In this document: in pieces, positions 19,056 to 44,311 of the stretch | Layout: each line of letters begins with the position of its first letter | How positions within the stretch are numbered: the stretch's first letter is position 1 | IMG/VR virus record: IMGVR_UViG_3300003690_000090 | Span: 1 to 64,000 of that record | From: a virus | DNA: 64,000 bases | Direction: 5' to 3' (one strand) | The notes under the pieces: model-generated | The model's database searches: none | Seen by the model: only the letters and a program-made list of their open reading frames with translations | Told to the model about the DNA's origin: nothing | Made by a program: the position numbers and the translations under genes

Positions 19056-20009
19056 TTAGGCGAACGGGTCGACGTTGTCGGGTTCCTCCAGAACCTCTTC
19101 TTCCGGTTCTGGATGAAACAGTTCTACCGGTTCTACCTGTTCTGCCGGTGCAGCCTCGACAACCTTCTTGGCCCTGCTCTTCCGCTTTTTCGTCGGTTCC
19201 GGGGGGGCATCCGCATCAATGGTCTCGGTGGCGTTGAACAGTGCCTTCTCGCCGGCATCCTTCTCGAGATCCTTGCGAACGACTTCTGGCACAAACATGT
19301 CCTTGTCCTGGCCGGCGATGTCGGTCACGATATCGTGCTCGAGGGCCGCTTTGGCGTCAGCTGTGAGCGGCAGGTACTTGCAGATCCGGCGGATGACCGT
19401 CTTGCGCCACATCTCCTCGGTGTGTGTGACCCAGGGCCCAGAGTTTCCACTCCGAGCTGACTTGCGGATTGTTTCGATCTGGTCTCGGCGCATGACTTCG
19501 ACCTGTTTCTGTCCATCCTTGAAGAAGCAGACAGCGTAGGCAAGGATTAGTTGGCCAGGATCCCCGTTGTACTTGGGCTCATGATGAAGCACTTCGCCTT
19601 GTTCCAGATCAAACGAGTGCGTGAACACCTCGTTCTCATGAACGACGCGAGCCACGAAGTTCGCAACGTCGCCGGAGCGGCGCACCAGTTCCATCAGGCC
19701 GGTGTAGTCAATCCACAGCTCGGCCTCCATGCAGCTCCGTTTCTTGTTGTACAGGGGAACCAGGTGGGCTCGGTGGAGAACGCCTCCCGCAACAAGGTTG
19801 AGCTCACAGGCCTTGGCCAGTGAGGTGTAGATCGACTCTGGGCTGCAGTCCAAGAGCCGTTCGTTCTTGTAGGCCTCGAAGCAGGCCAGGCTGACGATGC
19901 GTTCAATGTCGGTGCCCTTGGGCGCGATTCGCTGAAGGGTCGGAGACTTTCTCTCCAGGTAGTCCTTGATGTTTCCTAGCTTTCTTTGAGGTGTAAGTGC
20001 TGTCGTCAT
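19056..20009 (-). CDS. recT: RecT-family single-strand annealing recombinase
   Basis: CSPESI, AHLVP, IDYTGLMELVRRSG, GPWVTHTEEMWRKTVIRRICKYLP motifs. Confidence 0.93.
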   Translation of the reverse strand: MTTALTPQRKLGNIKDYLERKSPTLQRIAPKGTDIERIVSLACFEAYKNERLLDCSPESIYTSLAKACELNLVAGGVLHRAHLVPLYNKKRSCMEAELWIDYTGLMELVRRSGDVANFVARVVHENEVFTHSFDLEQGEVLHHEPKYNGDPGQLILAYAVCFFKDGQKQVEVMRRDQIETIRKSARSGNSGPWVTHTEEMWRKTVIRRICKYLPLTADAKAALEHDIVTDIAGQDKDMFVPEVVRKDLEKDAGEKALFNATETIDADAPPEPTKKRKSRAKKVVEAAPAEQVEPVELFHPEPEEEVLEEPDNVDPFA

Positions 20010-20971
20010 GGTTTGGCTCCAAGCACGCGAAAGACCCGGGCGCCGTCGCGATCTGAAAGGTAGGACTCATAAAGATCCGGGTGGTCCTGTTGAAACTTCT
20101 TCTGGTCGAATCGCTTGGAACTCTTGTTTTGTTTCCAAGAAGCGATTCCATCAATGCCTTCACTGTCGCCGATTGCAGCCCTGAGCTTGTTTTCAATCTC
20201 ATTCTTTTCATCGGTGCTCGCTTTGACTTTCCGACGAACCTCGAGCAATCGTTCATGGAGCTCGATTTCCTCTCCCGTGGCTGCACGCAAAACGTGTTCC
20301 TTGACTCGGGGATGCATCATTGAAAGCGCACTCTTGGCGAAATCGCTTCCATCTGGCGATGGCGGTGCATTGCCATCAATGTGTTTTTCCCACCAGGCGA
20401 TGGCGGTGTCCAGAATCTGACCGCCCAGCTCCTTGTCTCTGTCGATCCTGTACTCGCGGTAGTCATCCATTCCAATGAGTACAGCCACATCCCAGAAGGG
20501 CATATCGGTGACTTCCATGTAGACGCGGCACTGTATTTCCACATCCAACGGAACTAGGCCTGTTCCGCTATCTCCCCACCCCTCACGCCTGCGACGTGTC
20601 TTGATTTCCAGACCCCAAGTCGAGTCGTCGTCCCCAACGATAATTCGATCCGGTGTTCCGAAGATCTTCGCCATGCCGGAGTGCCAAACCAGGCCGCACT
20701 CTTTGACCTTGATGCCTGTATGGTTTTCCGCGTAGATCTCGGACACGTACTTTTCCATGACCCGGCCGCGCTTCATGGCGGGATTGTCCGACTGTGCCTC
20801 GATCTCATGCCGCATCTTGTTTGACCAGAGCGCAAACAAGCTCTTGCCAAATGAGCCAACCTTCATCTCTTTGTCGGCTGAAGCGCAGATGATGGAGGCG
20901 ATGTCTGTGCCGCCTAGTCCCCCTTTTCGTTCTCGGAGCCAGGCTTCGCGTTCGTTGGTTGTCTGTTCCAT
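20006..20971 (-). CDS. YqaJ/lambda-exonuclease family recombination nuclease
   Basis: WLRERKGGLGGTD, G..ME, TPDR, LEIKT, Q...YM motifs; paired with recT; start placed at ATG 20971 from the promoter position. Confidence 0.92.
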   Translation of the reverse strand: MEQTTNEREAWLRERKGGLGGTDIASIICASADKEMKVGSFGKSLFALWSNKMRHEIEAQSDNPAMKRGRVMEKYVSEIYAENHTGIKVKECGLVWHSGMAKIFGTPDRIIVGDDDSTWGLEIKTRRRREGWGDSGTGLVPLDVEIQCRVYMEVTDMPFWDVAVLIGMDDYREYRIDRDKELGGQILDTAIAWWEKHIDGNAPPSPDGSDFAKSALSMMHPRVKEHVLRAATGEEIELHERLLEVRRKVKASTDEKNEIENKLRAAIGDSEGIDGIASWKQNKSSKRFDQKKFQQDHPDLYESYLSDRDGARVFRVLGAKP

Positions 20972-20977
20972 GAAGCA

Positions 20978-21006
20978 ATCGTAGTCACCGCCCATTACCG
21001 TGTCAA
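20978..21006 (-). promoter_or_regulatory. sigma70-type promoter for yqaJ-recT
   Basis: TTGACA-17 bp-TACGAT on the minus strand. Confidence 0.75.
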
Positions 21007-23003: not shown

Positions 23004-24362
23004 CTAGAAGTATGACCCGTCATCTTCGACCTCTTTCGGCCTGTCTATGGCAATGATATCGCCTGGCTTTGACCAGAGATAGGTGCGGGTTCCTTTGTGC
23101 ATCTTTCTCACCCTCTCGTAACCGAGAGAACGCATGATCGTTCCAACCCGCATTTCGGCTGGCTTGCTCATCTGGTATGGCTCCAGCTTTAGGGGGTCTT
23201 GCATGATCTCTTGGGTCGTGATCTGGTTCGTATACTTGGCAGCCAACCAAACGATTAGCATTTCTTCCCACGGATCTTGCTGTCGGTATTCATCCGAGAC
23301 CTGCTGCAGGTCTTCTTCCAGATCGCTCTGCAGCCACCAGGCCTCATTGTTTCGGTAGGCTACTACCGCCTCTGCCCACAACTGTTCTCGGTTGGCATTG
23401 AGCCAATCAAGATTCACAGTACCAACCTCGACGGGCCAGAAGCGCCTCGAGCCAGTCATGTCCGAAATGAAGGACTTCTCGTTGGTGGTGCCGCAGAACA
23501 CACAGTGCCGCTTCTTCGTGACTGCGTGGCGCCCGTATGCTGGGCGGTAGGTGTCTTCTTGAGCTGACAGAAATGCCTTGGTAGCGGAGTTCGCACTCTT
23601 ACGAATGGAGTCGAGCTCGGCCACCTCGTAGATCCAGGTGCGCTGGATCTGCGCATAGGCGTTTGGTGAACCGATATCCATCGGGGTATCGCAGAAGTAC
23701 TGCTCACCAGCCAGGGTGCGAAACGCTGTGCTCTTGCGGGCACCCTGCTTGCCGATCAGGATGAGGACGGTGTCTGCCTTGCATCCTGGTTGCATTGCGC
23801 GTGCAACGGCCTGAATCAGCCAGCGACGGCCCACATCCCGATGTAGTTCATTGTCTGCCGCCCCGACGCCCCTGATCAGCCACTCCGAAATGCGCGGCGT
23901 TCCATCCCAACTGCAGGCCTCGAGCCATTCTATCAGTGGGTTCCGCTTGCGTTCTTCGCCAATGAGAGACGCAACCTCGGTGACCAGGCCTGTATTAAGC
24001 CGTACATCGTAGACTTCCTCCAGCCAGATGGCGATGCGGGTGTCGTCTGTGTCTCGATACTCCTGGTCAGCAAGCATCAGCACGTTTCGAAAGTCGTCTT
24101 TCCAGACCTTCTTACGCCAACGCCGGTCATGAGAAATGATCAGGTAAGCGTTTCTCTTGGTGGGGCGAACGGCCTGTGTTCCATCCTTGGTGGTCATCAT
24201 CTGCAGCATAGACAGGACGCTGCTGCTGGCTTGCGCTTCTTGGTTTGGACTGCCCGTAGGTATGCCGTCTTTGCCCACAGGCCCAGCATCCACGGCTGCC
24301 TCCATGAGCTCAACAAGAGTGGGTGCGTTTGCTTCGGTCAGGGTTTCAGACAGGTCAGGCAA
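23004..24362 (-). CDS. VirE/VapE-family P-loop helicase (primase-associated)
   Basis: WDGTPR, PGCKAD, Walker A GKQGARKST, EVAEL, YRPAYG, GTTN, TGSRRFWP, QLWAEA. Confidence 0.92.
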   Translation of the reverse strand: MPDLSETLTEANAPTLVELMEAAVDAGPVGKDGIPTGSPNQEAQASSSVLSMLQMMTTKDGTQAVRPTKRNAYLIISHDRRWRKKVWKDDFRNVLMLADQEYRDTDDTRIAIWLEEVYDVRLNTGLVTEVASLIGEERKRNPLIEWLEACSWDGTPRISEWLIRGVGAADNELHRDVGRRWLIQAVARAMQPGCKADTVLILIGKQGARKSTAFRTLAGEQYFCDTPMDIGSPNAYAQIQRTWIYEVAELDSIRKSANSATKAFLSAQEDTYRPAYGRHAVTKKRHCVFCGTTNEKSFISDMTGSRRFWPVEVGTVNLDWLNANREQLWAEAVVAYRNNEAWWLQSDLEEDLQQVSDEYRQQDPWEEMLIVWLAAKYTNQITTQEIMQDPLKLEPYQMSKPAEMRVGTIMRSLGYERVRKMHKGTRTYLWSKPGDIIAIDRPKEVEDDGSYF

Positions 24363-25380
24363 GGGTTCGCTCCAGTGGAAGCCTATAGACCTTGCGTGGC
24401 GCTAAGGTCTTGGCGATCGTGCTAGCGTATTCATCACCTTGTTCGTCTGGGTCACACCCGATGTAAATGGTTGCGTTGTCTGGCACGTTGAGAGAGGAGA
24501 GTGAGGAGAAGGATCCGGAGGCACCGGAGATAATAGCGAGGTTGGTATTGGCCTTTGTAACTTCCGAGCAAGCCATGAGAAGGTCTGTGATGCCTTCGCA
24601 GATCAAAAGGCCGTATAGATCCTTTGCTGGGTTGCCCTTCATCAACATCATCCCTTCGCGGTTGGCCATAAAAAGACCGCCGGCCTCGACGCCCATAGGC
24701 CACCTGGTCTTCGGGGCATCGTCTCGGTCAAAGACTGACCTGGCGTGAATGCTGGCAAAGGTGCCATCGATTTCGAACGCCGGAACGATGATCTTCCACT
24801 GGGAGCTCCATCGCTTGGGCCACCACTGTGGCCAGTGGTGTTGGTCTGGGTGTGGCAGCACCTTGGCCACACCCGACTTGATCAGCGATGGTATGTCGAG
24901 CTGTCTGCGTTCGAGAAACCGCAACACCGCTGCGTCTGCTCCTGAATCCGTGAGTGTCTCTATCTTCCTGCTTGCAGCCCAGAGAGCCAGAACCTCTTCC
25001 TGCTTGGGTCGCTGTCTCTCCCTGGGTTCGCGTCGTTTGGGTTGCGCCACCGGGGTACCGTTTGTGTGCTGCGCGATCCATCCGCGCTGGAGGTACCACT
25101 CTCTCACAGTCCGCTTCTTCTCTGCGGTCAGATTTCGGAGCCTGTCGCCCTCCAGCTTCATAGCCACCAGATCGACCCCATCACCGCCCGTACCGCAGGC
25201 GTGGCACTTCCATCCACGGTCATCCATGGCCACACCAACCGGTCCGCGCCGGTCATTACTTCCCCGAGTCTCGGCTCCACAATGCGGGCATGGGCTCAAA
25301 GATCTACCGCGCCCCGGGTTCAGGCCGACAGCAGTAGCTATGGTGCCAAGTGGCACCTCTTTTGCCGACTGAATCCACAT
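24355..25380 (-). CDS. DNA primase (Zn finger plus Toprim)
   Basis: CPHC...WKCHACG.GGD Zn finger; ICEGITD and DPDEQG Toprim motifs. Confidence 0.85.
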   Translation of the reverse strand: MWIQSAKEVPLGTIATAVGLNPGRGRSLSPCPHCGAETRGSNDRRGPVGVAMDDRGWKCHACGTGGDGVDLVAMKLEGDRLRNLTAEKKRTVREWYLQRGWIAQHTNGTPVAQPKRREPRERQRPKQEEVLALWAASRKIETLTDSGADAAVLRFLERRQLDIPSLIKSGVAKVLPHPDQHHWPQWWPKRWSSQWKIIVPAFEIDGTFASIHARSVFDRDDAPKTRWPMGVEAGGLFMANREGMMLMKGNPAKDLYGLLICEGITDLLMACSEVTKANTNLAIISGASGSFSSLSSLNVPDNATIYIGCDPDEQGDEYASTIAKTLAPRKVYRLPLERTLA

Positions 25381-26154: not shown

Positions 26155-27147
26155 TCATTTCTCTGATCCGGTGTCGCACATCCCCCACCGCACGCATCCC
26201 TGGTGGCCTGTTGGGTCCGTGAAGAGCTCTACTTGGTCCATGCTCCCGCCTCGTGTCGTGCGTGCCCACTTGATCACTTTGTCGATGGGCCAGGTGTCTC
26301 CGGCCCTCTTGCCGGTCTTGGGGTCTGTGCGAGAGATCGGGTTCTGAAACCACGTCGGTGGCTGGTATCCAAGCGACTCAAAGGTCTCCCCCTTGGCGGC
26401 GTACCGCTTCTTCGCGGCCTCCATGATGACCTTCTCCAGCTCGCCCAGAAGCTCAATGCGTTCTGGTGCGTAGTCGCTCATCGCTCGCAGCTCTGACTTG
26501 CGGGCGAAAATGCATGGGTAGCACCCCACTCGGGTACTCCCTTGTTCCAGATAGAGCCGGCAAGGACGGACCCCGTGGCGGTGGTGGATGGCAATGACAT
26601 CCTTCTCGGACCAGTCGATCAGGGGTCGCCACACATCGCACTTGAACGTCCCGCTGTACTCCCACTCCAGCATCATCGAGCGAGCGGCGGACTCCTGGGC
26701 GCGGATGCCGACCACGTTGATGACCTGGCCCTCGCGCTCCAGCAGGTAGTCCCGAGCCGGATACACCTTGAGGTGCTGGGTACACCACCGCCTGACACGA
26801 GAGGGGAACATCCCCTTCTTGATGCACAGCCGGACCATCGAGGAGTATTCCACGCCGAGCAATCTCTCGAAGTGTTCTGCCACCGGAACCATTTCCTCTG
26901 GAATGTCGATCTTTGCCGACAACCTAGTGACGGGCCCAACCACTGCGGGCAGGTCGTTCTCTACGTATTGGTACAAATAGTCATGTTCCCAACCCGTATC
27001 GAAGAAGATGCGGTCGTAGTCGTCGGGGCCGTACCCAAGGTCCATCAGGTGCAGACAGCAGGCCGTGGAGTCCTTGCCGCCGGAGACGGACACTACCAGG
27101 CGGCGCCCATCCAGTTTTTCATCGAGCTCTTCGCGTGTCATCTGCAT
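26155..27147 (-). CDS. PAPS-reductase/DndC-like PP-loop protein
   Basis: SGGKDS, DTGWE, RWCT..LK, GIRAQES..R, RVGCYPC, C-terminal Cys pair. Confidence 0.9.
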   Translation of the reverse strand: MQMTREELDEKLDGRRLVVSVSGGKDSTACCLHLMDLGYGPDDYDRIFFDTGWEHDYLYQYVENDLPAVVGPVTRLSAKIDIPEEMVPVAEHFERLLGVEYSSMVRLCIKKGMFPSRVRRWCTQHLKVYPARDYLLEREGQVINVVGIRAQESAARSMMLEWEYSGTFKCDVWRPLIDWSEKDVIAIHHRHGVRPCRLYLEQGSTRVGCYPCIFARKSELRAMSDYAPERIELLGELEKVIMEAAKKRYAAKGETFESLGYQPPTWFQNPISRTDPKTGKRAGDTWPIDKVIKWARTTRGGSMDQVELFTDPTGHQGCVRWGMCDTGSEK

Positions 27148-27989
27148 TCCCTTACGTTTCGAAACAATGGCGCATCGCTGCGGATTCGTCTGCGAGATTC
27201 CTCTGCGTACTGCTGGTTGAGCTCAACGCCAAGAAAGTTTCTGCCCAGCCTGTTCGCTACTAATCCGGTTGTTCCGGCTCCAGCGAATGGGTCGAGTACC
27301 AGGTCTCCGATTGCACTCCCGGCCTTGATGCAGCGCTCGGCCAGGTCGGGAACCATCACAGCTACGTGACTGCCGGCGTACCTGGCCACCGGCAAAGACC
27401 ACACGTCCCTCGGTCGACGCCCCTCGAGTTCCCCGGCGTTGTATACGCGCCCGCTGTAGGTCTCGTTACCGCTTTGCTTGTGTCCGCCAAAGCCAGCTGA
27501 TATCGTCACGTCCGGATGCTTTAGTGGCTCGAGTACAGCCTGCATGTCGAAGTAGTAGTGCGGGTTCTTTGCCAGCAGGAAGACGTGCTCATGAGCTGGG
27601 GTGAATCGGTCGGTGACTCCCCCGCCTGCAGGAATGGTGTTGGTCTTGTGCCAGATGATTTCCGAGCGCAGCACCCAGCCTCGTTCTTGCAAAGCAAGGG
27701 CAACTCGCCACGGAACACCCATGAGTTGCTTGTCGACATAGCAGTCTCCAAGGTTCAGCCACAGCGTGCCGTCTTCTGCCAGCACATGCTTCACCTGGTC
27801 CATGCGTGCGCAAATGTTGAACACGTACTCTTCGAGAGTATGTTCCGACCCGAGCTCGTTCTCGGTCCCGTAGGAACGGAGATTCCAGTAGGGTGGGCTC
27901 GTGACGCAGCACCTGGCCACACCAGCCTTCTGGCGTTGAAGCTCGTCGAGACAGTCACCGTGTAGTACTACAGCCCAGGTGTCAGCCAT
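27138..27989 (-). CDS. DNA N4-cytosine/N6-adenine methyltransferase (beta class)
   Basis: GDC, TSPPY catalytic motif before DPFAGAGTTG SAM motif; ATG 27989 overlaps the queC end. Confidence 0.92.
   Translation of the reverse strand: MADTWAVVLHGDCLDELQRQKAGVARCCVTSPPYWNLRSYGTENELGSEHTLEEYVFNICARMDQVKHVLAEDGTLWLNLGDCYVDKQLMGVPWRVALALQERGWVLRSEIIWHKTNTIPAGGGVTDRFTPAHEHVFLLAKNPHYYFDMQAVLEPLKHPDVTISAGFGGHKQSGNETYSGRVYNAGELEGRRPRDVWSLPVARYAGSHVAVMVPDLAERCIKAGSAIGDLVLDPFAGAGTTGLVANRLGRNFLGVELNQQYAEESRRRIRSDAPLFRNVRECR
27971..27988 (-). repeat. 18-bp direct repeat, copy 1 (TGGCTGACACCTGGGCTG)
   Basis: Identical to 29206..29223. Confidence 0.95.
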
Positions 27990-28584
27990 TGGATGCCCCA
28001 TTGATGGCATTGATGCGCAACACGCAGGAGTTACAGGTTCCGCATGGTTCGCCTGATTTTGCATTTGCAGAGTAGCAACTCCAAGTAGTTTCCAAATCAA
28101 TGCCCAGACCGATGGCTCGGGCGATCACCTCTGGCTTCCGAAGTTCTATTAGCGGGGCGACTATGCGAACGCCTGTGTCCTGCTCAACAAGCCTGCAGAT
28201 ATCAGAGACGAAGCCTGGCCTGCAGTCCGGGTAGTCCTCCCAGTCGTCTCTGGTCGGGCCATACCAAACCTCTTGAATGCCTTTGGCGGCGGCATAGTTG
28301 ACTGCCAGCGAAAGCATGATCAGGTTCCGGCCTGGGATCATCCTTGAACCAGGCTCGCCGGATGACGCCTTCATGGGCTCCATCCCGCGAATCGTTGGCA
28401 TCAATCGCAACATCTCGACATCGTGTTTGCGAGCCCATTCTGCTGCAACTCGAAACTCATCGGGTCCGGATGGTTGCATGTAGGAGAAGTGGAGCAGTGA
28501 ATGCAGCACTCCCCCCTGGTGCGCCATGGTTGCTAGGACGGTGGAATCCACTCCACCGCTGAACAGAACTGCGACTGACTTCAT
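27982..28584 (-). CDS. queC: 7-cyano-7-deazaguanine synthase
   Basis: SGGVDS, PGRNLIML, YPDCRP, TWSCY...CGTCNSC; ATGA coupling. Confidence 0.92.
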   Translation of the reverse strand: MKSVAVLFSGGVDSTVLATMAHQGGVLHSLLHFSYMQPSGPDEFRVAAEWARKHDVEMLRLMPTIRGMEPMKASSGEPGSRMIPGRNLIMLSLAVNYAAAKGIQEVWYGPTRDDWEDYPDCRPGFVSDICRLVEQDTGVRIVAPLIELRKPEVIARAIGLGIDLETTWSCYSANAKSGEPCGTCNSCVLRINAINGASNG

Positions 28585-29224
28585 ATGATTTCCCATAGGG
28601 GTAGTTGGTTTTTGGCATTGGTGAGTAGGGGAATGCTGACTGCAAACCTGCTTGCGCTTGTGCCATCAAACGAATCCGCACCAGCGAACTGGCATAGGCG
28701 TATTCTCCTGGCGGTGTTCACTCGCCCCACATGGAAATAAGCGCCGGTCTCCCGTGCCAGCTGCCCCCATTGCCGCATCGTATCCAACTTCCAGTCTGTT
28801 GTGCCGCCCAAGAAAATGCCGATTTCATCGCACAACAGGGAACGGATATCGCCTGGTGTCATGCCATCCTGAACGGCTATGAGTTGCCTGTGTCCCACGC
28901 CGCGCAGCCTGGGCAGCCACTCTTCTGAAAAGCGTAGCGACTCGTGCCCCCCCCAACGATGTCGGGCACGACGATGAACTCGGCGTTGTCGCCAAGAGAT
29001 TCGACGACGGCCTCAAAGGCCGGGACATCGAATGGAAGGCCTTTCTGGTAGGCGGTCCAAGCTCCATTGTCTATTGCGTATGGAAAGCCTTCATGTCGGT
29101 GCTTACCTGTGGCGGACACCAATATGTGCCATCCAGATTTGCGCAGGGCATCAAGGTTTCGACGTGTTCCTGTTCGGCTTGCATAGGGAATCATCGTCCT
29201 GGTTGCAGCCCAGGTGTCAGCCAC
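28581..29224 (-). pseudogene. DpdA/TGT-like transglycosylase gene split by a frameshift at a G8 tract
   Basis: Motifs IDNGAW, PDIVGG | AVQDG, IFLGG, HVGR, ADSFDGTS are TGT-barrel-like; one extra G at 28947-28954 gives a single 214-aa ORF. Family call is from motifs and adjacency to queC. Confidence 0.7.
29206..29223 (-). repeat. 18-bp direct repeat, copy 2
   Basis: Identical to 27971..27988. Confidence 0.95.
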
Positions 29225-29396
29225 GCGCTGCTACCTCGAGCATCGTGCGGATGCATCCCATACAGATCTTTGCGCGAACCTTTGGCCTGGCATCCCAGTT
29301 GTGAAACACGATGAGTTCATCGAACCGGCCTCGACAGATGAGGCATCTGCGCCTGTGGCTAAGTCCGTATGTGTTGTGTTCTGGGGCTTTTGGCAT
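29217..29396 (-). CDS. 59-aa C4 zinc-finger protein (not in ORF track)
   Basis: Hand translation MPKAPEH...CLIC...ICMGCIRTMLEVAARG*; GAGG RBS. Confidence 0.6.
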   Translation of the reverse strand: MPKAPEHNTYGLSHRRRCLICRGRFDELIVFHNWDARPKVRAKICMGCIRTMLEVAARG

Positions 29397-29403
29397 CGTT
29401 GCC

Positions 29404-29472
29404 TCATGTCCAGGGGTCGATCAGCATCGTTACTGCGATCCAAAAGATGATTAGAATTATGACGGCCTTCAT
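29404..29472 (-). CDS. 22-aa hydrophobic peptide
   Basis: ATGA overlap; MKAVIILIIFWIAVTMLIDPWT. Confidence 0.35.
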   Translation of the reverse strand: MKAVIILIIFWIAVTMLIDPWT

Positions 29473-29867
29473 GCTTCCCCCACCGTTGATGCCCTGTCTG
29501 CCAGCGAGCGTTGGTAGTCGATGGCTTCCTCGGCTTCCCGTTCCCTCTCTACGCGGATCTCCTCCCGAAGCCTGGCGACCAGGTGGTCCTCCCACTCACA
29601 CCGGATGACGGACAACTGCTCGGTCACCCTGGGCTCACGGGGATCTCCGTGGTGCTCGAGGCAGTAGTGCAGGAAGTCCTCGGCCATTTCGTCTGGCTCC
29701 TCGGGAATCTCAATCCCGTGGTACTTCCGCCACAGTTCCTGGTAGGCATCGTTGTCACTGATCTCCCTGAACGCATCACGAATGCCTGGCCCGAATGCCA
29801 CGCAGTTCGTGTTGCAGTAGAACACCGCAATGCCTTTTCGCTTGTCGTATAGAATGTCAATCGCCAT
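29469..29867 (-). CDS. Hypothetical protein
   Basis: Operon spacing and GAGGT RBS. Confidence 0.65.
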   Translation of the reverse strand: MAIDILYDKRKGIAVFYCNTNCVAFGPGIRDAFREISDNDAYQELWRKYHGIEIPEEPDEMAEDFLHYCLEHHGDPREPRVTEQLSVIRCEWEDHLVARLREEIRVEREREAEEAIDYQRSLADRASTVGEA

Positions 29868-29870
29868 GTC

Positions 29871-31256
29871 TCAAACCTCGCATCCGAGCTCTCGGTAGAG
29901 CTTCATTCGTTTCTTGGAGAGCGCGAAGAACGCGCCAGATCTGTCAATGCAATCCACTACCAGTGGGGTCTGCTTGTTCTCGGCCACGCGCATGATGCGA
30001 CCGATGCGTTGCTGCACACGACCCATCGCCTTGGTTGGCGAGGTCAGCACCACGGTGTCCAGGCCGGGAAGGTCAAGCCCCTCGTCGGCAACCGTGGTGG
30101 CGAAGATGGCACGAAGTTCGCCGGAGTCAGCGGCCTCGAGCACGGCTGCCCGCTTCTTCTTTGACATCGTGCCGACCAGTGCCGCAGAGCTGTAGCCCAA
30201 CTCTGCCAGTACCTCGGCCATGTCAATGCAGTGCTGCACCCTGTCGGACAGCACGAGCACCTGGCGACCAGCATTCAACAGCTCACAGATCTTGTTGATG
30301 ATCTTGTCGTTGCGGTCCTCGTCCTTGCACATCTTGTTGATCAGCACAGGCCAGTCCACTCGTGTCTTCGGCGGTTCCCACCCGGTGAACAGTTGCTCGA
30401 CCCTGGGTGCCATGACTCGCCCTGCCGCTACCAGGTTCTTGGTGCTGATTTCCTTGAGCACGTCACCGAAGTGCCAGTACAGCAGGTCAGTCAGTCCGTC
30501 GTTGCGTTCCGGCGTTGCCGTCAGTCCCAGCCGGTAGGTCGCGGGGATGGCCATCAGCACACGAGAGAAGGTGTGCGCCGGCACATGGTGTGCCTCGTCG
30601 AGGATGCACAGCCCGAAGGCGTTCTCCTGGCTGGATGCCCAGCGGTACAGATCGTCCCAGCGTCTGCGAATCAAGCTCTGGATGGTGGCCACGACCACGC
30701 GTCCCGTGTCGTCGTTGTCCCCCCCGCCGATGACGGTAGCCTCAATGCCCAGTTGCTCGCGGCACCGGGCGACCCATTGCATGGCGAGGTCAAGGGTGTG
30801 TACCAGCACAAGCGCCCGAGTCGGCAGCGCAGCTATGGCACCGATACCGATGGTGGTCTTGCCCGCACCACAGGGTGCCACTACCAGGCCACTGCCTTTC
30901 TTCAGGAGCTCCTTCACGGCCTGCTGTTGGTAGTCACGAAGGGTGATGTGTTCGGCTATGTGTACGTCGTCGGCCTCACCGCACACCGTGTGTCTAATGA
31001 TGTTCAGGTCCAGGTCATCGTGGTTCACGGCTCTCGGAACCATCAGCCCACCGTACCAGGGATGCCACATCGGAAACTCCTGTGGTCCGTAGACCCAGCG
31101 TTCCGGCATGGGCACTCGCTTGCCCTGGCTGCGGAGTCGCATGGCTTGCTGCCACTCGGGACTCTCGAGCCTGTACTTGTCCTTGAGTTGGTTGAGGTAT
31201 GGCGAGTCAGGTGGCAGGTACAAGCCGCCGGCAAGCACTGCGCGTAGGTCGGTCAC
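29871..31256 (-). CDS. Superfamily 2 (DEAH) helicase
   Basis: LRDYQ, PCGAGKT, DEAHH, TATP, EGLDLP, QRIGRIMR. Confidence 0.93.
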   Translation of the reverse strand: MTDLRAVLAGGLYLPPDSPYLNQLKDKYRLESPEWQQAMRLRSQGKRVPMPERWVYGPQEFPMWHPWYGGLMVPRAVNHDDLDLNIIRHTVCGEADDVHIAEHITLRDYQQQAVKELLKKGSGLVVAPCGAGKTTIGIGAIAALPTRALVLVHTLDLAMQWVARCREQLGIEATVIGGGDNDDTGRVVVATIQSLIRRRWDDLYRWASSQENAFGLCILDEAHHVPAHTFSRVLMAIPATYRLGLTATPERNDGLTDLLYWHFGDVLKEISTKNLVAAGRVMAPRVEQLFTGWEPPKTRVDWPVLINKMCKDEDRNDKIINKICELLNAGRQVLVLSDRVQHCIDMAEVLAELGYSSAALVGTMSKKKRAAVLEAADSGELRAIFATTVADEGLDLPGLDTVVLTSPTKAMGRVQQRIGRIMRVAENKQTPLVVDCIDRSGAFFALSKKRMKLYRELGCEV

Positions 31257-38531: not shown

Positions 38532-38700
38532 GCAGCGCTACCCGGTCCGCCGCCCCCTGGGCAGAGCTACATGGACCGCCGCCCGCAAGGCAAGCGCTAC
38601 CCGGCCTGCCACCAGCCGGAGCTCCTGTTGGAGCCGCGCATGAGCTGGGCAAGCGCTACCCGGACCGCTCCCAACTGGGCGAGTACTACCCGGACCGCTG
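38532..38700 (+). repeat. GCTACCYGG repeat cluster 3 (5 copies)
   Basis: CTAC cores at 38538, 38567, 38597, 38656, 38686. Confidence 0.9.
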
Positions 38701-38778
38701 CCCACCGTTGTTACTATCATCCGCCTGGTCAACTCGAACCCGGGCAGTTCCGATCTCGCCGGCCTGGGCTCGAGACGC

Positions 38779-38813
38779 AAAGAAGCCCAGCCGACCTAGT
38801 GGCCGACTGGGCT
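38779..38813 (-). terminator. Intrinsic terminator
   Basis: AGCCCAGTCGGCC-acta-GGTCGGCTGGGCT then TCTTT, after stop at 38845. Confidence 0.7.
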
Positions 38814-38844
38814 CGGGTGCCGGGCTAAGCCCGGGGACACCACC

Positions 38845-39153
38845 CTATGGCTCTGGCATGTTGTGCTCATCGCCGAAGAAGTAGCCCTGATCTGGCGCGT
38901 TCAGCGAGACCTGGTATTCGGTCGGCTTGCCTGCTTTCTCCCAACACGCGACATGGTAGCAGCACACCTCCATCACGTTGGATACCTCCGCGCCATCCAC
39001 GCGCCCATACCCGTCGTACTCGCCTTGGCGGATCGTGCCGTCCTTCTCGATCACGACCACCTGGCGCATCCAATTGTTGATCGGGCTTGTCGCCCATTCA
39101 CTCAGCATGGGGTGCTGGCATGCGTTGCAGTTAGCGCTGAAAAATCCCATCAT
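38845..39153 (-). CDS. Small Cys/His-containing early protein
   Basis: MMGFFSANCNAC...YDGYG...HVACW; ATGA overlap. Confidence 0.7.
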   Translation of the reverse strand: MMGFFSANCNACQHPMLSEWATSPINNWMRQVVVIEKDGTIRQGEYDGYGRVDGAEVSNVMEVCCYHVACWEKAGKPTEYQVSLNAPDQGYFFGDEHNMPEP

Positions 39154-39326
39154 GCACCCCCTTCGGTCTTGTGGGGCGTTGTCTTGGGTGCCTTGTACCA
39201 AAACCGTTCTTCCTTGCACCACGACAGCCCGGTGTAGATAATGATCTGCCCCTCGTTGTCCGTGTCTATCGTTGCAAGGGGCAGCAATTGTGCGAGTGCT
39301 TGTACCAATTGATCCATAGTCATCAT
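39150..39326 (-). CDS. Small early protein
   Basis: DNEGQIIIYTGL; ATGA overlaps. Confidence 0.6.
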   Translation of the reverse strand: MMTMDQLVQALAQLLPLATIDTDNEGQIIIYTGLSWCKEERFWYKAPKTTPHKTEGGA

Positions 39327-40072
39327 GCACCCCCTTCTGCCTTGCGCCACCCGGTGTACCGGTTGACCTTCGGACCGTGCGCGACGATGGCCACCGACGG
39401 GCGACGGGCACCCCTCGAGGTACCATCGCACTGCCTGCAGGATGCGCAGTCCAGCACCTTGCCTGCTTCCTCTGCAGCCGGGCACACCCGTTCCCACGGT
39501 TGCAAGGCTTCGGTTGCAAGGCGCGTTCTAAACGTCCGCCATCCCAGCGAATGAGCGATCGTCGCTTCGGCGGGTGTGTCGACCGACGCCATGACAAGAT
39601 CCGCCCATTCGGACGCGTCCAGATCTGGCCACCTATGATCGTATCCGGTCCACCCCTTGGCATCCTGCAGCATCGCACGCCATGTGGGAGAGGGTACGAC
39701 CGACGGGTTTCCATAGGTACCCATCCGAACCATGCGACCGTCAAGGTGCGCGGGCAATTCCGAGACGTCCGGGCGGATCACGTTGCCCCGGTGGTACGCT
39801 TGCCAGACTGCAAGCGGACCCCGGAAGGCGAGCACGTAGCACGCGCCAGACCCGCCCGATGCGACCGAACGGTGTCCGCAGTCCCCGCAGACTGCGACGT
39901 CATCCCCGGACCGGATAGCGTCATGTGGTGCGATATCCCTGTGCATAAGGTAGGTCTGGACCAGATCGCCCGTCTTGGCATTGGCGGACTGGTAGTCAAG
40001 GTCCTGCGTGATCCCGATAATCGGTGATCCGTCTATGGGCGATGGCCCCTCATAGAATACGATGCGTCGCAT
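39323..40072 (-). CDS. Cys-rich phage protein, possible Fe-S/radical-SAM-like enzyme
   Basis: NAKTG, CGDC...CYV, CPA, CASCRQC, AHG motifs. Confidence 0.65.
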   Translation of the reverse strand: MRRIVFYEGPSPIDGSPIIGITQDLDYQSANAKTGDLVQTYLMHRDIAPHDAIRSGDDVAVCGDCGHRSVASGGSGACYVLAFRGPLAVWQAYHRGNVIRPDVSELPAHLDGRMVRMGTYGNPSVVPSPTWRAMLQDAKGWTGYDHRWPDLDASEWADLVMASVDTPAEATIAHSLGWRTFRTRLATEALQPWERVCPAAEEAGKVLDCASCRQCDGTSRGARRPSVAIVAHGPKVNRYTGWRKAEGGA

Positions 40073-40120
40073 GTGGTGTGTCCGTTGTTTGTGGTGTCCG
40101 ACGGGTAGCCCGTCCCATGT

Positions 40121-40148
40121 AATGTAACCCGCCCTGATAACGGGGCAA
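40121..40148 (-). promoter_or_regulatory. Early promoter, GTTRTCA-family
   Basis: TTGCCC-c-GTTATCAG-N7-TACATT. Confidence 0.7.
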
Positions 40149-40154
40149 CCCGTC

Positions 40155-40325
40155 GCAAGCGCTACCCGGACCGCCGCCCACATGCCGGGAGGCCTGGCAC
40201 AATGCAAGCGCTACCCGGACCGCCGCCCACATGCCGAGGCGCAAGCGCTACCCGGACCGCTATGAGCTGGCACAATGCAAGCGCTACCCGGCCCGCTGCT
40301 GGCAAGCAAGCGCTACCCGGTCCGC
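40155..40325 (+). repeat. Repeat cluster 4: GCAAGCGCTACCCGGNCCGC x5
   Basis: Copies start at 40155, 40204, 40241, 40277, 40306. Confidence 0.95.
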
Positions 40326-40385
40326 TGCCCGCTGGGCACGACCTTGTGGAGCCGGAGACCTGGTCTCGCATGCGTGTCTCGATGG

Positions 40386-40413
40386 GTGCCCCGTTATCAG
40401 AACAGGTTACATT
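40386..40413 (+). promoter_or_regulatory. Early promoter, GTTRTCA-family
   Basis: GTTATCAG-N7-TACATT then GACA leader and GGAGG RBS. Confidence 0.7.
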
Positions 40414-40442
40414 ATCCATGGACACAAACCACGGAGGTCCAC

Positions 40443-40766
40443 ATGAAACCCCCCACCTTTGAAACCCACAACGACACCAAGGTCGACATCAATGGCACGC
40501 ACCTGCAGGGGCACATCGACACCACGTTCGGTGCCCTCGTTTGCACGTTCGGAGAACCGACAGTCGGTGACGAATACAAGATCGACTGGGAATGGGAGAT
40601 TGAGTTTGCAGATGGCACCGTTGCCACTGTCTACAACTGGAAGAATGGCCCCAACTATTGCAGGTCCGGAGGGAAACGCGCCAACCAGATCACCGATTGG
40701 CACGTTGGCGGTCACAAGGGTGAAGCGTTGGCGCTGGTGCAGCAGGCGCTGGGAGGTCTGGCATGA
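40443..40766 (+). CDS. Conserved-looking small phage protein
   Basis: LQG, FGEP, EW, TVYNWK, WHVGG pattern; GGAGG RBS. Confidence 0.75.
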   Translation: MKPPTFETHNDTKVDINGTHLQGHIDTTFGALVCTFGEPTVGDEYKIDWEWEIEFADGTVATVYNWKNGPNYCRSGGKRANQITDWHVGGHKGEALALVQQALGGLA

Positions 40767-40987
40767 TCTATCGAGGTAGCCTCGCAGAAGGTCCAGCGCG
40801 TGAGTCCGACGGGTTCCCCAAGTGGATTGAATGGAAGGGGGTGCAGTACCAGACACCCCACTATGACGTCATCCATGAATGGGTCTATGACAGCATTGTG
40901 GATGCCATCGACGGCACCCCCATCGAGCCCGATGGGATCACCTGTGAGGGTTGCCCCTCATGGCTGCTGGCATTGGGTCTGATCTAA
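40763..40987 (+). CDS. Small phage protein
   Basis: EPDG...PSWLLALGLI; GGAGG RBS, ATGA overlap. Confidence 0.7.
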   Translation: MIYRGSLAEGPARESDGFPKWIEWKGVQYQTPHYDVIHEWVYDSIVDAIDGTPIEPDGITCEGCPSWLLALGLI

Positions 40988-41025
40988 ACACGACACCGGG
41001 AGGTAGGGATGGAATAGCGCATCCG

Positions 41026-41057
41026 CCCCGTCATCCGCAAGGGTGGCGGGGTTTCCT
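41026..41057 (+). terminator. Intrinsic terminator
   Basis: CCCCGTCATCC-GCAA-GGGTGGCGGGG then TTTCCT. Confidence 0.65.
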
Positions 41058-41074
41058 ATTGGCCTGGTGCAAGC

Positions 41075-41143
41075 GCAAGCGCTACCCGGACCGCCCCCGC
41101 CTGGGCACGGGACCGTGGAGCCGTAAGCGCTACCCGGCCCGCC
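41075..41143 (+). repeat. GCTACCYGG repeat cluster 5 (2 copies)
   Basis: CTAC cores at 41082 and 41130; first copy shares about 34 bp with the 36252 copy. Confidence 0.9.
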
Positions 41144-41209
41144 ACCGGTTGTGTCTACTATCATCACACCAGCTGGCAGCTCCGACCTGGTAGAGCTCAA
41201 GCCCAGCAC

Positions 41210-41246
41210 AAAGAGAAGCCCCGCCGAGCTTGGAGCCGGGCGGGGC
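41210..41246 (-). terminator. Intrinsic terminator
   Basis: GCCCCGCC/GGCGGGGC stem then TTCTCTTT. Confidence 0.6.
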
Positions 41247-41278
41247 GGTTGGCCTGGTCGAACGTTAGGCCGGTGAGA

Positions 41279-41374
41279 TCAGTCGTCGGGTGGCCTGGGC
41301 AGAATTGCCATGGCGCAGAAGAAGAGAACGACAAGGGCAGTGCATGCCAAGGTGGTCATGAGGAAGTCGAACAT
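41279..41374 (-). CDS. 31-aa membrane peptide (not in ORF track)
   Basis: MFDFLMTTLACTALVVLFFCAMAILPRPPDD*; AC-rich leader, weak RBS. Confidence 0.35.
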   Translation of the reverse strand: MFDFLMTTLACTALVVLFFCAMAILPRPPDD

Positions 41375-41466
41375 GTGGGGCCTGGTCTTGTGGTGAGTGA
41401 GTTGTTTTGATTTGGTTTGGGGGTGCGGGACGGGAGGAACCACCCTCCCGCCCCGGGTTGTACAAC

Positions 41467-42093
41467 CTACCCAAGCATTTCCTCTGCGCCGATGGACTTG
41501 CCGCCCATGACCAGACTGTCAAAGTTGGAACCATCCAGGCGCAGACCGTAGTTCCTCCAGTACCGTTGGCGCAGGTCAAAGGTGTGCTTGACCCACGGCT
41601 TGATGCCGGTGGTGATCTTGGTGCGCACGGTTTCGGCACGCTTGACTTCGGTTCCCTCTGCTGCTGCGCCCTTCCACATTTCCAGACCGACCACAAGAAC
41701 CTCGTCCTCATTCTTGGGGTTGCGCATCAGGCGACCGTCAACCACGGTGACCAATTCAGTCTTGCGGTCATGCTCACCGGCAAGGGACTTGCTTGCGCTT
41801 GCGATCAATTCATCAATCGCAACGGCGATATCAGCAGCAGTGGGAACCATGCGGATAGGGTCCGCGCCCTTCTGGCGAACCAGCGGGTTGACCATGTCAG
41901 GGTGTGCAGCCAGTGCCACGGGGTCAAGGGACCGGAGGGTTTCCAAATCCTTTCGGATGACGTTCTTGTACGACACGCCGATCTGCAATTTGCGATGCCG
42001 GCTTTCGCCTTCTTTCGTGACATGTCCACGGATGAAGGCGATCTGTCCGCCTCCGGTTTCGGCAATCATGGTTTCGATGGTGGGGGTGGCCAT
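41467..42093 (-). CDS. Early hypothetical protein (208 aa)
   Basis: GGAGG RBS before MATPTIET. Confidence 0.7.
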   Translation of the reverse strand: MATPTIETMIAETGGGQIAFIRGHVTKEGESRHRKLQIGVSYKNVIRKDLETLRSLDPVALAAHPDMVNPLVRQKGADPIRMVPTAADIAVAIDELIASASKSLAGEHDRKTELVTVVDGRLMRNPKNEDEVLVVGLEMWKGAAAEGTEVKRAETVRTKITTGIKPWVKHTFDLRQRYWRNYGLRLDGSNFDSLVMGGKSIGAEEMLG

Positions 42094-42142
42094 GGTTGGC
42101 CTCCATTGGTTTGGGTTGTCACCGGAGGGTTCCGGTACAAAC

Positions 42143-42170
42143 AACCTATCGTCATGGGTGATAACGTCAA
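42143..42170 (-). promoter_or_regulatory. Promoter containing GTTATCA
   Basis: TTGACG-16 bp-TAGGTT. Confidence 0.55.
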
Positions 42171-42247
42171 GGGCACAGCCCGACCCCTGGCCCCCATGCC
42201 CCATGCCGGCATGCCCCCACACCCCCGCGTTACCTGGCATACACCCA

Positions 42248-42360
42248 CCAAGTGCTACTCGGACCGCCACCAATTGACCAAGAGCTACCCGGACCGCCAT
42301 CAATTGAGACCAACCAAGCGCTACCCGGACCGCCATCAATTGACGGAGTGCTACCTGGCG
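42248..42360 (+). repeat. Repeat cluster 6 (4 copies, three followed by CAATTGA)
   Basis: CTAC cores at 42255, 42285, 42321, 42351. Confidence 0.92.
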
Positions 42361-42985: not shown

Positions 42986-43045
42986 TTGGCACTATCATCA
43001 AGGTGTGGCTACGTAGTTATCATGACAACCAACACCGAGGGATAC

Positions 43046-44311
43046 ATGGAAGAGGACGTGAGATACACCACGCTTGATCTGTTTGCGGGTGCAGGGGGAG
43101 CATCATTGGGACTACGAGACGCAGGGTTTCATCATGCGTTGTGTGTAGAGTGGGATGAGGATGCAACGGAGACGTTGTTGGCAGCAGACTTTCCAGCAGC
43201 GAATGCAGACGTCAGGGAGTTGGATGTCTACAAGACAATCGAGAGAGTCGATCTGTTGTGGGCATCGCCACCATGCCAGGCGTTCTCAACTGCTGGGCAG
43301 AGGAGGGGTGCGGAGGATGACAGGAACGGATGGCCGTGGACTCTTGAGGTGATTGACCACTTGATGGAGCGTGGTGTTGGTCCGAGGTACGTCGTCTGTG
43401 AGAATGTACAGGGACTGACGTACCACCAGGCGGAGTGTGTTGGGGGGAACAGTGGTTGTGCTGGTTGCTATTGGGAAGGGTGGATCATTCCAGAGTTCAA
43501 GAAGCGCTTTGCGTGGGTAGGTCATACGACGTTGGATGCTGCAGGCTTTGGAGTACCACAGCATAGGAAGCGTGTGTTCTTGGTGGCGGGTGATGGACCG
43601 ATACGGTGGCCAGTACCAACGCATGGACCACCGAATGCAGCGAAGCAGGGTGCATTGTTTGGTGGTGGTGTCAGGCCGTATGTCACGGTGCGTGATGCAT
43701 TGAACATTGACGCATGGGCTACGGAGACGAACACGAGCTCGGGTATGGCTCGAGTAGCGAGGAGTGCAGATACTCCATCGTGTTCACCAGTAGCGGGAGG
43801 CAAGGCGCTGGGTGGATTGCTTGAGGTAGACACTAGGGTGATGGGTGTCTCATGCAATCCATTCAAGAAGGATGAGAACGGAGGTCCACTCAAGGAAGAC
43901 AGAACGTACAAGGACATCACGGATACACCAGCTGGGTGTGTGAGTTCTCGTGGTCCATTGGACAATCAAGGTCCATTCGTAGTGAGCGATGGTGCTTCAG
44001 TACCAGGTCCAGGCAGTGAGCCATGGAGACTGGATGAACCATCAGCAACTGTGACTACTACAGAGGAGAAGGGTACGAGGGGGAAGCATATGAGTGGTGG
44101 ACCAGACAGAGCTGCTGACACTATGTGGCGTGGTGCTGGTGTGAGACGATTGACATGGCAGGAGTGTGCAGCGTTGCAGTCGTTTCCAGTGGAACATCCA
44201 TTTCAGGGGAAGACGAAGAAGAGTCTGTATCGCCAGGTAGGGAATGCAGTACCACCACCGTTGTCTCGTGTCTTAGGTCAGGCCGTGAAGGAGGCATTGG
44301 ATGCAGGCTGA
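43046..44311 (+). CDS. DNA (cytosine-5) methyltransferase
   Basis: DLFAGAGG, SPPCQAFS, ENV, PQHRKRVF, LQSFP, YRQVGNAV. Confidence 0.93.
   Translation: MEEDVRYTTLDLFAGAGGASLGLRDAGFHHALCVEWDEDATETLLAADFPAANADVRELDVYKTIERVDLLWASPPCQAFSTAGQRRGAEDDRNGWPWTLEVIDHLMERGVGPRYVVCENVQGLTYHQAECVGGNSGCAGCYWEGWIIPEFKKRFAWVGHTTLDAAGFGVPQHRKRVFLVAGDGPIRWPVPTHGPPNAAKQGALFGGGVRPYVTVRDALNIDAWATETNTSSGMARVARSADTPSCSPVAGGKALGGLLEVDTRVMGVSCNPFKKDENGGPLKEDRTYKDITDTPAGCVSSRGPLDNQGPFVVSDGASVPGPGSEPWRLDEPSATVTTTEEKGTRGKHMSGGPDRAADTMWRGAGVRRLTWQECAALQSFPVEHPFQGKTKKSLYRQVGNAVPPPLSRVLGQAVKEALDAG

Follow-up and report, generated by a model that had tools for sequence, protein, structure and literature searches.

Between positions 27989 and 29223 of a marine phage genome of about 73 kb (IMG/VR virus record IMGVR_UViG_3300003690_000090, 72,988 bp, of which bases 1-64000 were analysed and are referred to here as the window) lies a block of two minus-strand genes, a dpdA-like gene and queC, which is delimited by two identical copies of an 18-bp direct repeat and is present in some members of natural marine populations and missing, to the base, from others. 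We propose that this block is an accessory cassette, which would have been inserted at the start of an N6/N4 DNA methyltransferase gene with duplication of the 18 bp, may be lost as a unit and would serve to modify the DNA of the phage. Taken as a whole, this explanation has in our estimation a probability of about 0.72.

The 18-mer, TGGCTGACACCTGGGCTG (minus strand), is found at exactly two sites in the window when up to two mismatches are allowed (coordinates in Table 1), and none of 100 dinucleotide-preserving shuffles yielded two or more matches to it. An independent repeat search recovered the same pair, with a spacing of 1235 bp, and the few other exact direct repeats of at least 18 bp in the window are tandem, short-range or members of one family at 36-42 kb. 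The dpdA-like gene and queC are the only genes between the two copies: Pfam and PHROG scans found no transposase, integrase or homing nuclease in the cassette, and according to the repeat search no inverted repeat pairs its ends. The sequence-only reading of this DNA, which had described an exact repeat pair enclosing only these two genes, each copy holding the stop codon of the upstream gene and the start of the downstream one, was correct in all these details. Both downstream open reading frames (ORFs) begin with MADTWA, because each copy together with its preceding base provides a GTG or an ATG start. The idea of the 18-mer as a genome-wide junction adaptor was rejected for this genome, in view of its only two copies; an 11-nt core of the repeat, with at most one mismatch, occurs at five sites against 1.63 expected, and the one of the three extra sites that was inspected (33868) is not a start/stop junction.

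A one-copy form of the locus exists in marine metagenomes. A search of a run index which samples 31-letter words listed 22 sequencing runs, 20 of them with part of the stretch, all consulted as Logan contigs and not as raw reads, and four runs (X1-X4, X1 being the best match with 0.89 of the words and perhaps the sample of origin) were aligned to positions 27400-29800. In X2, a marine metagenome from another study than X1, a contig of 1172 nt (record 8, depth 13.5) covers 27400-27970 and then 29206-29384, skipping 1235 bp at a joint where 18 letters fit both sides. The 1235-bp deletion allele that had been predicted from the repeats is thus found, with 5 differences from the window in 571 nt on one side and 3 in 179 nt on the other (99.1% and 98.3% identity). 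In this allele the zinc-finger ORF located upstream of the cassette remains in place, and the joining of 27970 to 29206 restores an intact zinc-finger/methyltransferase junction with a GTG start, as had also been anticipated. The filled form is present in X2 as well, in a contig at depth 2.85 over 28906-29229, and it is the form seen in X3 and X4, parts of the stretch that are uncovered in X2 and X4 being no evidence of absence. In X1, a loose end at 27988 continues with the 12 letters that the window has after 29223, as a fragment specific to the empty junction would do, which hints at the same form in that run. The X2 allele, with one repeat copy and collinear, nearly identical flanks, has the form expected for the empty site of a repeat-flanked insertion with target duplication, and wild populations are polymorphic for the presence of the cassette.

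One could attribute the repeat to chance or to faulty assembly, and the deletion contig to a mis-join, since the window record is itself a metagenome assembly with at least one probable error (in a run of eight G residues, discussed below) and several strain variants coexist in run X1. We regard this as exceedingly improbable. The result of the shuffles speaks against chance, two independent relatives, recovered from other samples, have the repeat at each junction, and the X2 contig combines its depth of 13.5 with 571 and 179 letters on its two sides. Moreover, no false join is expected from the repeat alone and a mis-join in the assembly graph is unlikely, because 18 bp is shorter than the 31-letter words from which Logan contigs are, as we take it, assembled.

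To place these alleles among related phages, loci were collected with the PAPS-reductase-like protein encoded beside the methyltransferase as anchor (the best 80 of 431 confirmed metagenome relatives plus eight viral loci). The expected conservation of the repeat in relatives was borne out: two cassette-bearing loci, L003 (the same contig as L016, L096, L108 and L110) and L002 (the same contig as L014, L097 and L109), share the order zinc finger-dpdA-queC-methyltransferase-PAPS and display variants of the repeat at both junctions. The upstream copy of L003 is identical to that of the window and its downstream copy differs at one of 18 positions, the two being 17/18 alike; in L002 the upstream copy is a 15/18 variant, the downstream one differs from that of the window at one position, and between themselves the two copies have three mismatches (15/18). 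L017, a metagenome contig of 73,312 nt, has the same gene content and identity values as L002. A cassette-less lineage comprises nine loci (L011-L013, L018, L019 and L098-L101; a direct comparison of L011-L013 gave about 99.9% identity) with the order helicase-p132-small membrane ORF-p170-methyltransferase-PAPS, that is, without zinc finger, dpdA or queC. It carries a single junction copy, matching the 18-mer at 15 of 18 positions, and so identifies the junction as native to the methyltransferase.

The origin of the duplicated codons can be read from both of their present owners. In the cassette-less lineage the methyltransferase begins with MPETWAAVIHGDC (MPETWAAV), its start overlapping the stop of the preceding gene. 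In contrast, the first ten codons of the dpdA-like ORF (MADTWAATRT) are an extension of which the first six copy the methyltransferase start, and the native ATG is retained at 29192-29194. Among 32 aligned members of the dpdA-like family, an M-x-D-T-W extension is found only in the two from this clade, and most of the 30 without it begin directly at a conserved M-x-x-Y-A-S-R-T-G-T, which corresponds to residue 11. Likewise, the PHROG profile phrog_15826 matches the protein from residue 11, its ESM Atlas entry begins at residue 11, read as M, and in an AlphaFold2 model residues 1-6 have a predicted local distance difference test score (pLDDT) below 50. Taken together, these data show that the duplicated codons originate from the methyltransferase and not from the dpdA-like gene. 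The family start at residue 11 and the start of the cassette-less methyltransferase together imply that the cassette entered the methyltransferase gene immediately behind its first codons, with duplication of the junction.

The window and L003 are 95.6% identical in the cassette and 96.5% and 97.0% identical in its flanks, and for the window and L002 the corresponding values are 85.3% in the cassette, 91.6% on the methyltransferase side and 80.3% on the zinc-finger side. Cassette identity follows flank identity, and consequently the cassette is older than the split of the three lineages. At four listed positions where the empty allele of X2 differs from the window it has the letters also present in L003 and L002, and with 99.1% and 98.3% identity to the window this allele seems nested among cassette bearers, which is suggestive, not decisive. 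The simplest history, which we consider quite probable, would be a single old insertion followed by a recent, precise loss, the deletion being argued from the similarity of the flanks. To this extent the earlier proposal of a cassette inserted with target duplication, and gained or lost as a unit, is supported.

Several observations weigh against the proposed explanation. The data are contigs and not reads, and give no allele frequencies, rare circles or direction of the event. No backward joint, as expected for a circle junction, was found among the contig joints of the four runs, a result that is uninformative either way given that contigs drop rare forms. Homologous recombination in the flanks could have placed an old empty allele in a background similar to the window. 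In addition, a neighboring indel that carries the gene p170 has no clean flanking repeat, so that repeat-mediated exchange is not the sole process in the region. Finally, the dpdA-like gene of the window is frameshifted and, if this is real, the cassette of this particular genome is inactive.

In accordance with some of these points, the empty allele could be the surviving pre-insertion form, the cassette having entered once and spread by homologous recombination of its flanks, with the repeats as an unused scar. Such a history would agree with the existence of a cassette-less lineage with a single junction copy, with the uneven identity along the region between the window and L002, with the indels at p170 and at the N-terminus of the zinc-finger protein, which give the region a mosaic character and make flank recombination plausible, and with the lack of a listed circle junction. 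Nevertheless, we judge it unlikely, although it retains appreciable weight. The flanks of the X2 empty allele are closer to the window than those of L003 or L002, its four differences are common to both of these cassette bearers, the cassette diverged in step with its flanks, and both forms occur in one sample, X2. The L011-type lineage, in turn, is not an exact or direct empty partner, because its upstream gene is different and its flank identity only about 75%. A search of viral contigs for more empty sites, with the 26-nt stretch made of the zinc-finger end plus the repeat and with the zinc-finger protein, returned only contigs already in the comparison set. The recent loss of an old insertion is the history that we favor.

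The region beside the cassette is a hot spot of gene-content change. Two further indels lie there, at 29360-29402 and 29390/29391. An insert of 572 nt, which carries a gene of 170 aa (p170; phrog_24928, of unknown function), is present in X3, L002 and the L011 lineage and absent from the window. It was tried as an event comparable to that of the cassette, between the window and L002, and rejected, as only about 5-6 bases are shared at its ends. An insert of 36 nt, adding 12 residues to the zinc-finger protein, is found in run X1 and in L002, and the loose end of the X2 contig starts with these letters too.

In more distant relatives (40-60% identity in the PAPS-like protein) the dpdA-queC pair is located at other gene boundaries, with flanking repeats of 3-10 bp. 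It lies downstream of the PAPS-like gene in L033, L057 and L064, and after a helicase and a Zn-ribbon gene, before a gene X, in L029, L044 and L051; queC adjoins dpdA in all six. Filled and empty partners can be paired here too. L033 displays against the empty L032 and L043 a 10-bp flanking repeat, GATGAATGAT, which includes the upstream stop, the empty sites reading GAATGAT; the flanks of L064 and the empty L066 are 98.8% identical and the overlap is TGA only; and L044 with L035/L068 constitutes a further pair. In each filled/empty pair the breakpoints fall on a stop or start codon, and the 18 bp of the window are the longest and cleanest duplication among those seen. Altogether, the same gene pair is found exactly at gene boundaries at no fewer than three other sites in related marine phages, and queC directly follows dpdA in nine of ten distinct dpdA-bearing loci (the window included, L074 being the exception). 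To judge from these comparisons, dpdA-queC is a portable module. At the exact point where L064 has dpdA-queC and L066 has none, L063 carries an unrelated insert of 840 bp (1136-1976), ending in the last ten or so bases of queC (TTTACTTTGA), as if part of the cassette end had been kept.

Based on these data, we hypothesize that the block 27989-29223, with the dpdA-like gene first and queC second, entered at the start of the methyltransferase gene and that the insertion duplicated the stop of the upstream gene, the overlapping start codon and the first five methyltransferase codons. The dpdA-like gene would have taken over the coupled start of the methyltransferase together with a 10-residue N-terminal extension, queC would end on the duplicated stop and the methyltransferase would retain its own start, so that, stop and start both being duplicated, translational coupling would be preserved on both sides. 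The two identical copies may then act as substrates for short-homology recombination or replication slippage, in an event that would remove exactly 1235 bp and leave the intact zinc-finger/methyltransferase junction with its GTG start. The phage's RecT/RecE-like pair may carry out the recombination. Of the earlier suggestion that a RecT-type annealase makes use of the short homology, one part stands, since RecT-like and RecE-like genes are present; that RecT makes the deletion is a role we infer for it.

A bolder version of this mechanism would regard the duplicated junction as the docking site of a gene-cassette system free of integrase, from which a 1235-bp circle with one repeat copy is released and annealed by RecT/RecE into co-infecting relatives that share the methyltransferase start; annealing of such a circle would couple both sides to translation at once. 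This might be a general route by which anti-restriction genes circulate among lytic phages, but we consider it speculative and rather unlikely.

In the window, a frameshift at a G8 run divides the dpdA-like gene into two pieces. The fused protein of 214 aa proposed earlier is nevertheless real, being encoded intact in L003 and L002. At the G8 position L003, L002 and L017 read GGGGGTGGG, the contigs of X1, X2 and X4 have one extra base and X3 has a T-interrupted form, all of which restore the 214-aa frame. Most probably the frameshift either stems from a homopolymer error of the record or is a minor variant, and it is not a feature of the population; alternatively, it may represent a real on/off variant at the G8 run.

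The AlphaFold2 model of the 214-aa protein (pLDDT 90.2, predicted template modelling score 0.89) is a TIM barrel. When compared with 48,161 chains by a wide VIA-align search, its top structural match was the tRNA-guanine transglycosylase (TGT) 3unt (Z 14.9, root-mean-square deviation 3.2, 204 residues aligned). Archaeosine TGT (1iq8) ranked 6th with Z 13.7, the bacterial DNA preQ0 insertase DpdA (7ui4) 8th with Z 13.4, 203 aligned residues and 16% identity, the highest among the 50 matches listed, Cap10 (9ntn) 10th with Z 13.3, and QTRT2 21st with Z 12.3. A foldseek comparison with viral models returned many phage entries named 'queuine tRNA-ribosyltransferase', at E values of 1e-6 to 1e-3. 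However, the fold is not specific, in that pyruvate kinase barrels tie with TGT (Z about 14.4-15.5) and a ribulose-phosphate epimerase barrel comes close to it (Z 13.8). In addition, no curated sequence model matches the protein, be it in Pfam (including PF01702, TGT, and PF20314, DUF6610/DpdA4; E up to 1), NCBIfam (E up to 0.1) or the DpdA models of PADLOC (E up to 0.01); PF01702 has no match in the whole genome at E up to 10, and a search of PDB sequences was negative or at chance level. The failure to match curated models is weak evidence against membership, because the Seuratvirus DpdA1 family likewise has no precomputed Pfam domain. Comparison by hhalign with a profile of 20 sequences of the experimentally validated DpdA1 of CAjan-like Seuratviruses gave no more than a weak link, with a probability of 5.7% (E 0.0066, 45 columns, aligning DNGAW with DSGAF) and 3.9% when single sequences were compared, both with shallow profiles (effective number of sequences about 2). 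The earlier assignment of a TGT fold is accordingly upheld as regards the barrel, with TGT as top match and DpdA at rank 8, and not as regards specificity, other barrels scoring equally and TGT/DpdA sequence models failing to match. We therefore describe the protein as a predicted small TIM barrel of the TGT superfamily, at the level of fold and context, with no branch of TGT singled out.

Closer kin are found among phages. Searches by tblastn and hhalign establish a firm link between the family and small proteins of actinophages that are annotated 'DpdA-like', and the hhalign probability reaches 99.1% for gp40 of Arthrobacter phage Aoka, which is 'DpdA-like' by the annotation of its depositors. 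Residues D52 (DNGAW), D88 (PD) and D187 (DSFDG) are invariant in the 32 aligned sequences, and from the order of the motifs they may correspond to the catalytic aspartates of TGT enzymes. By language-model features, DUF6610 (DpdA4) is the named cluster closest to the protein, with a score of 0.90, which is a lead only. The family is large, with 3270 matches at E up to 0.001 among 3576 candidates, all listed names being 'hypothetical protein', and its members mostly have about 205 aa, the N-terminal extension bringing those of this clade to 214 aa. On a bolder reading, the family, for which curated models are lacking, could constitute a new, minimal subfamily of DpdA.

Members or possible members of the family were seen in other settings. 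In Escherichia phage SHIN8 (L106, a Seuratvirus), besides an annotated DpdA of 306 aa, two overlapping 'hypothetical' ORFs just upstream of the DNA polymerase gene (4977-5569) jointly show similarity to the small DpdA-like family (about 31% identity, E 5e-5), perhaps as pieces of a second barrel gene that is split or frameshifted. In Erythrobacter phage ZS04 (PV416405.1, 63894-64517) a match to the small barrel lies under a feature annotated 'DarB-like antirestriction protein', and BFVD entry A0A0F7L9Z1, a 499-aa protein of an uncultured marine virus, contains the barrel with 47% identity and a template modelling score of 0.88 over the query. Erythrobacter phage R6L has a homologue, 50% identical, near a gene annotated as PAPS reductase; a conserved three-gene unit in that phage was considered and dropped, as the QueC and PAPS-like proteins of the window have no tblastn match there (E up to 1e-3).

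The assignment of the second gene is firmer. Apart from its Pfam score (Table 1), the protein matches the QueC-like family of PHROG at 2.3e-42 and QueC of PADLOC at 4.8e-23, and its translation displays the PP-loop SGGxDS (VLFSGGVDST) and the C-terminal Zn-binding CxxCxxC (CGTCNSC). With TIGR00364 it scores 116 bits, under the equivalog cut-off of 150, so that by its sequence it is a clear family member, though not certified as an exact equivalog. A further point against the proposed function is that PHROG and Pfam scans of the 73-kb genome found none of folE, queD, queE and queF, and the precursor 7-carboxy-7-deazaguanine must consequently come from the host. Phages with partial pathways, which may depend on host precursors, are described in two studies (PMC6884629, PMC10516641). 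We propose that QueC would convert host-made 7-carboxy-7-deazaguanine to preQ0 (7-cyano-7-deazaguanine) or to the amide intermediate ADG, and that the DpdA-like barrel would exchange guanine in the phage DNA for preQ0 or ADG, which would protect it from restriction. That the gene pair installs preQ0 or its amide in the phage DNA is, in our view, probable, with the enzyme activities and the DNA target predicted from family and context.

The pair could instead act on tRNA, at position 34 of GUN anticodons, or on a protein, as do the QueC-like Cap9 and TGT-like Cap10 of the type IV cyclic-oligonucleotide-based anti-phage signalling system (CBASS), which are reported in a preprint to attach a deazaguanine to a protein (10.1101/2025.04.06.647259). 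The structural scores do not separate the branches of the superfamily (TGT 14.9, DpdA 13.4, Cap10 13.3), and in L033 a phage tRNA-Asn(GUU), a tRNA normally modified with queuosine, follows the cassette directly. Yet L032 and L043, the partners without the cassette, have this tRNA as well, and the window lacks tRNA genes altogether. The 214-aa protein consists of the barrel alone and covers 204-206 residues in alignments to TGT chains of about 370 residues; the QueC of the window is much closer to QueC models (E 4.8e-23) than to QatC (E 0.0033); and PHROG and Pfam scans turned up no CD-NTase or CBASS-like gene. Furthermore, the cassette is part of a DNA-modification block, with the N6/N4 methyltransferase and an SspD/DndC-like protein adjoining and a C5 methyltransferase elsewhere, and published work regards phage DpdA proteins as DNA transglycosylases (PMC6884629, PMC10516641). 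Action on tRNA or protein is for these reasons improbable, and modification of DNA is the function that we favor. The tRNA-Asn(GUU) genes are at 3407-3482 in L033, where the cassette lies between the PAPS-like gene and the tRNA, at 6973-7045 in L032 and at 5695-5769 in L043.

The cassette belongs to a packed run of minus-strand genes which extends from a helicase to a primase/VapE block and comprises, in this order, a 132-aa ORF, a small membrane ORF, the zinc-finger ORF, the dpdA-like gene, queC, the methyltransferase and the PAPS-reductase-like gene (Table 1). The zinc-finger ORF has no family match in Pfam, PHROG and PADLOC searches. The PAPS-reductase-like protein matches the PADLOC models of SspD (1.1e-23) and DndC (1e-10), which describe DNA phosphorothioation systems; its gene is the most conserved of the module across relatives, and the protein may be another DNA-modification enzyme instead of one of sulfur metabolism. 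Besides the cassette, the phage has at least three DNA-modification functions, one of them a separate C5 cytosine methyltransferase. A RusA-like protein (PHROG scan) and a terminase are also encoded in the window, in which a tRNA scan found no tRNA gene. Exact words of 20, 30 and 50 nt from the last 600 nt of the record are absent from its first 3 kb, showing no terminal repeats, and megablast with the 5.5-kb region gave no match to cultured phages. A family of exact direct repeats of 18-30 nt at 38649-42310, with the common word AAGCGCTACCCGGACCGC and copies at about 38649, 40154-40300, 41073-41125 and 42284, may be a repeated regulatory or promoter motif.

Table 1. Position of the cassette, its repeats and other features of the window
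Feature	Position	Strand	Remarks
ORF of 3860 aa	242-11824		virion-RNA-polymerase-like segment (phrog_2206) at residues 1746-1990
RecT-like annealase	19056-20009	-	phrog_148 and phrog_434 matches, 2.9e-60 and 1.6e-67, for the RecT/RecE-like pair
RecE-like exonuclease	20006-20995	-	PHROG match; partner of the RecT-like gene
Primase/VapE block	23004-25380		opposite boundary of the minus-strand gene run
PAPS-reductase-like PP-loop protein (SspD/DndC-like)	26155-27147	-	Pfam PAPS_reduct 6e-19
N6/N4 DNA methyltransferase	27138-27989	-	Pfam N6_N4_Mtase 3.2e-43; native N-terminus M-x-[DE]-T-W-A
Downstream repeat copy	27971-27988	-	holds the queC stop (27982-27984); with A27989, ATG start of the methyltransferase
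queC, 7-cyano-7-deazaguanine synthase family	27982-28596	-	Pfam QueC 5.9e-42, 144 bits (cut-off 22)
dpdA-like gene	28581-29224	-	two pieces, 28877-29224 and 28581-28898, split by a frameshift in the G8 run 28947-28954
Upstream repeat copy	29206-29223	-	holds the zinc-finger stop (GGC TGA, 29217-29219); with G29224, GTG start of the dpdA-like ORF
Zinc-finger ORF, 59 aa	29217-29396	-	CxxC...CxxC; upstream of the cassette; stop inside the repeat
Helicase	29871-31256		bounds the minus-strand gene run on one side
C5 cytosine DNA methyltransferase	42986-44311		Pfam 1.5e-44

Modification of DNA with 7-deazaguanines is a major means by which phages escape restriction, and there is little documentation of how the responsible genes move between phages. 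The present locus is found in both of its states in natural marine samples, with breakpoints exact to the base. Because it is the operon's coupled stop/start that was duplicated, a foreign gene pair would be expected to be expressed immediately on insertion and to be lost without damage, which offers a testable model of how lytic phages may rapidly acquire and shed anti-defence genes. In addition, a large and unannotated family of small DpdA-like proteins is flagged for biochemistry.

Precise deletion between short direct repeats, by slippage or annealing, leaves a single copy, and accessory genes of the 'moron' type insert at phage gene boundaries. The cassette resembles both, since one copy is left after its loss and the block stands at a gene boundary; unlike moron-type genes, it has no promoter or terminator of its own that could be identified and relies on the duplicated coupled start and stop, and both alleles are present in natural samples. 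In T4-type phages, recombination between short repeated regulatory cassettes, termed PeSL, deletes, inserts or replaces accessory genes and can free small circles, which are possible gene carriers between phages (Arbiol et al. 2010, PMC2839356). The short repeats at gene boundaries, the plastic region and the gain and loss of accessory genes are common to both systems. In contrast to PeSL, described there as a multi-copy element made of promoter and terminator, the repeat reported here is one duplicated coding junction (a stop, an overlapping start and five codons) with two copies only, and no circle was seen among the contig joints. Rad52-like phage recombinases such as Redβ and RecT recombine sequences with only short identical stretches more efficiently than RecA (De Paepe et al. 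2014, PMC3945230), and the phage studied here encodes a RecT/RecE-type pair; nevertheless, the substrates of that study had diverged homology over hundreds of bp, in which the perfect stretches measured 11-298 bp, and activity on an isolated 18-bp repeat is an extrapolation from them. As in the phage DpdA systems treated by Hutinet et al. (2019, PMC6884629) and Cui et al. (2023, PMC10516641), a protein with the fold of the TGT superfamily is encoded beside a gene of the preQ0 pathway, but the protein described here matches no available TGT or DpdA sequence model, is small and belongs to a large unnamed family. The locus is, in sum, a new, well-documented and clean instance of known processes, short-repeat deletion and modular shuffling, and not a new principle.

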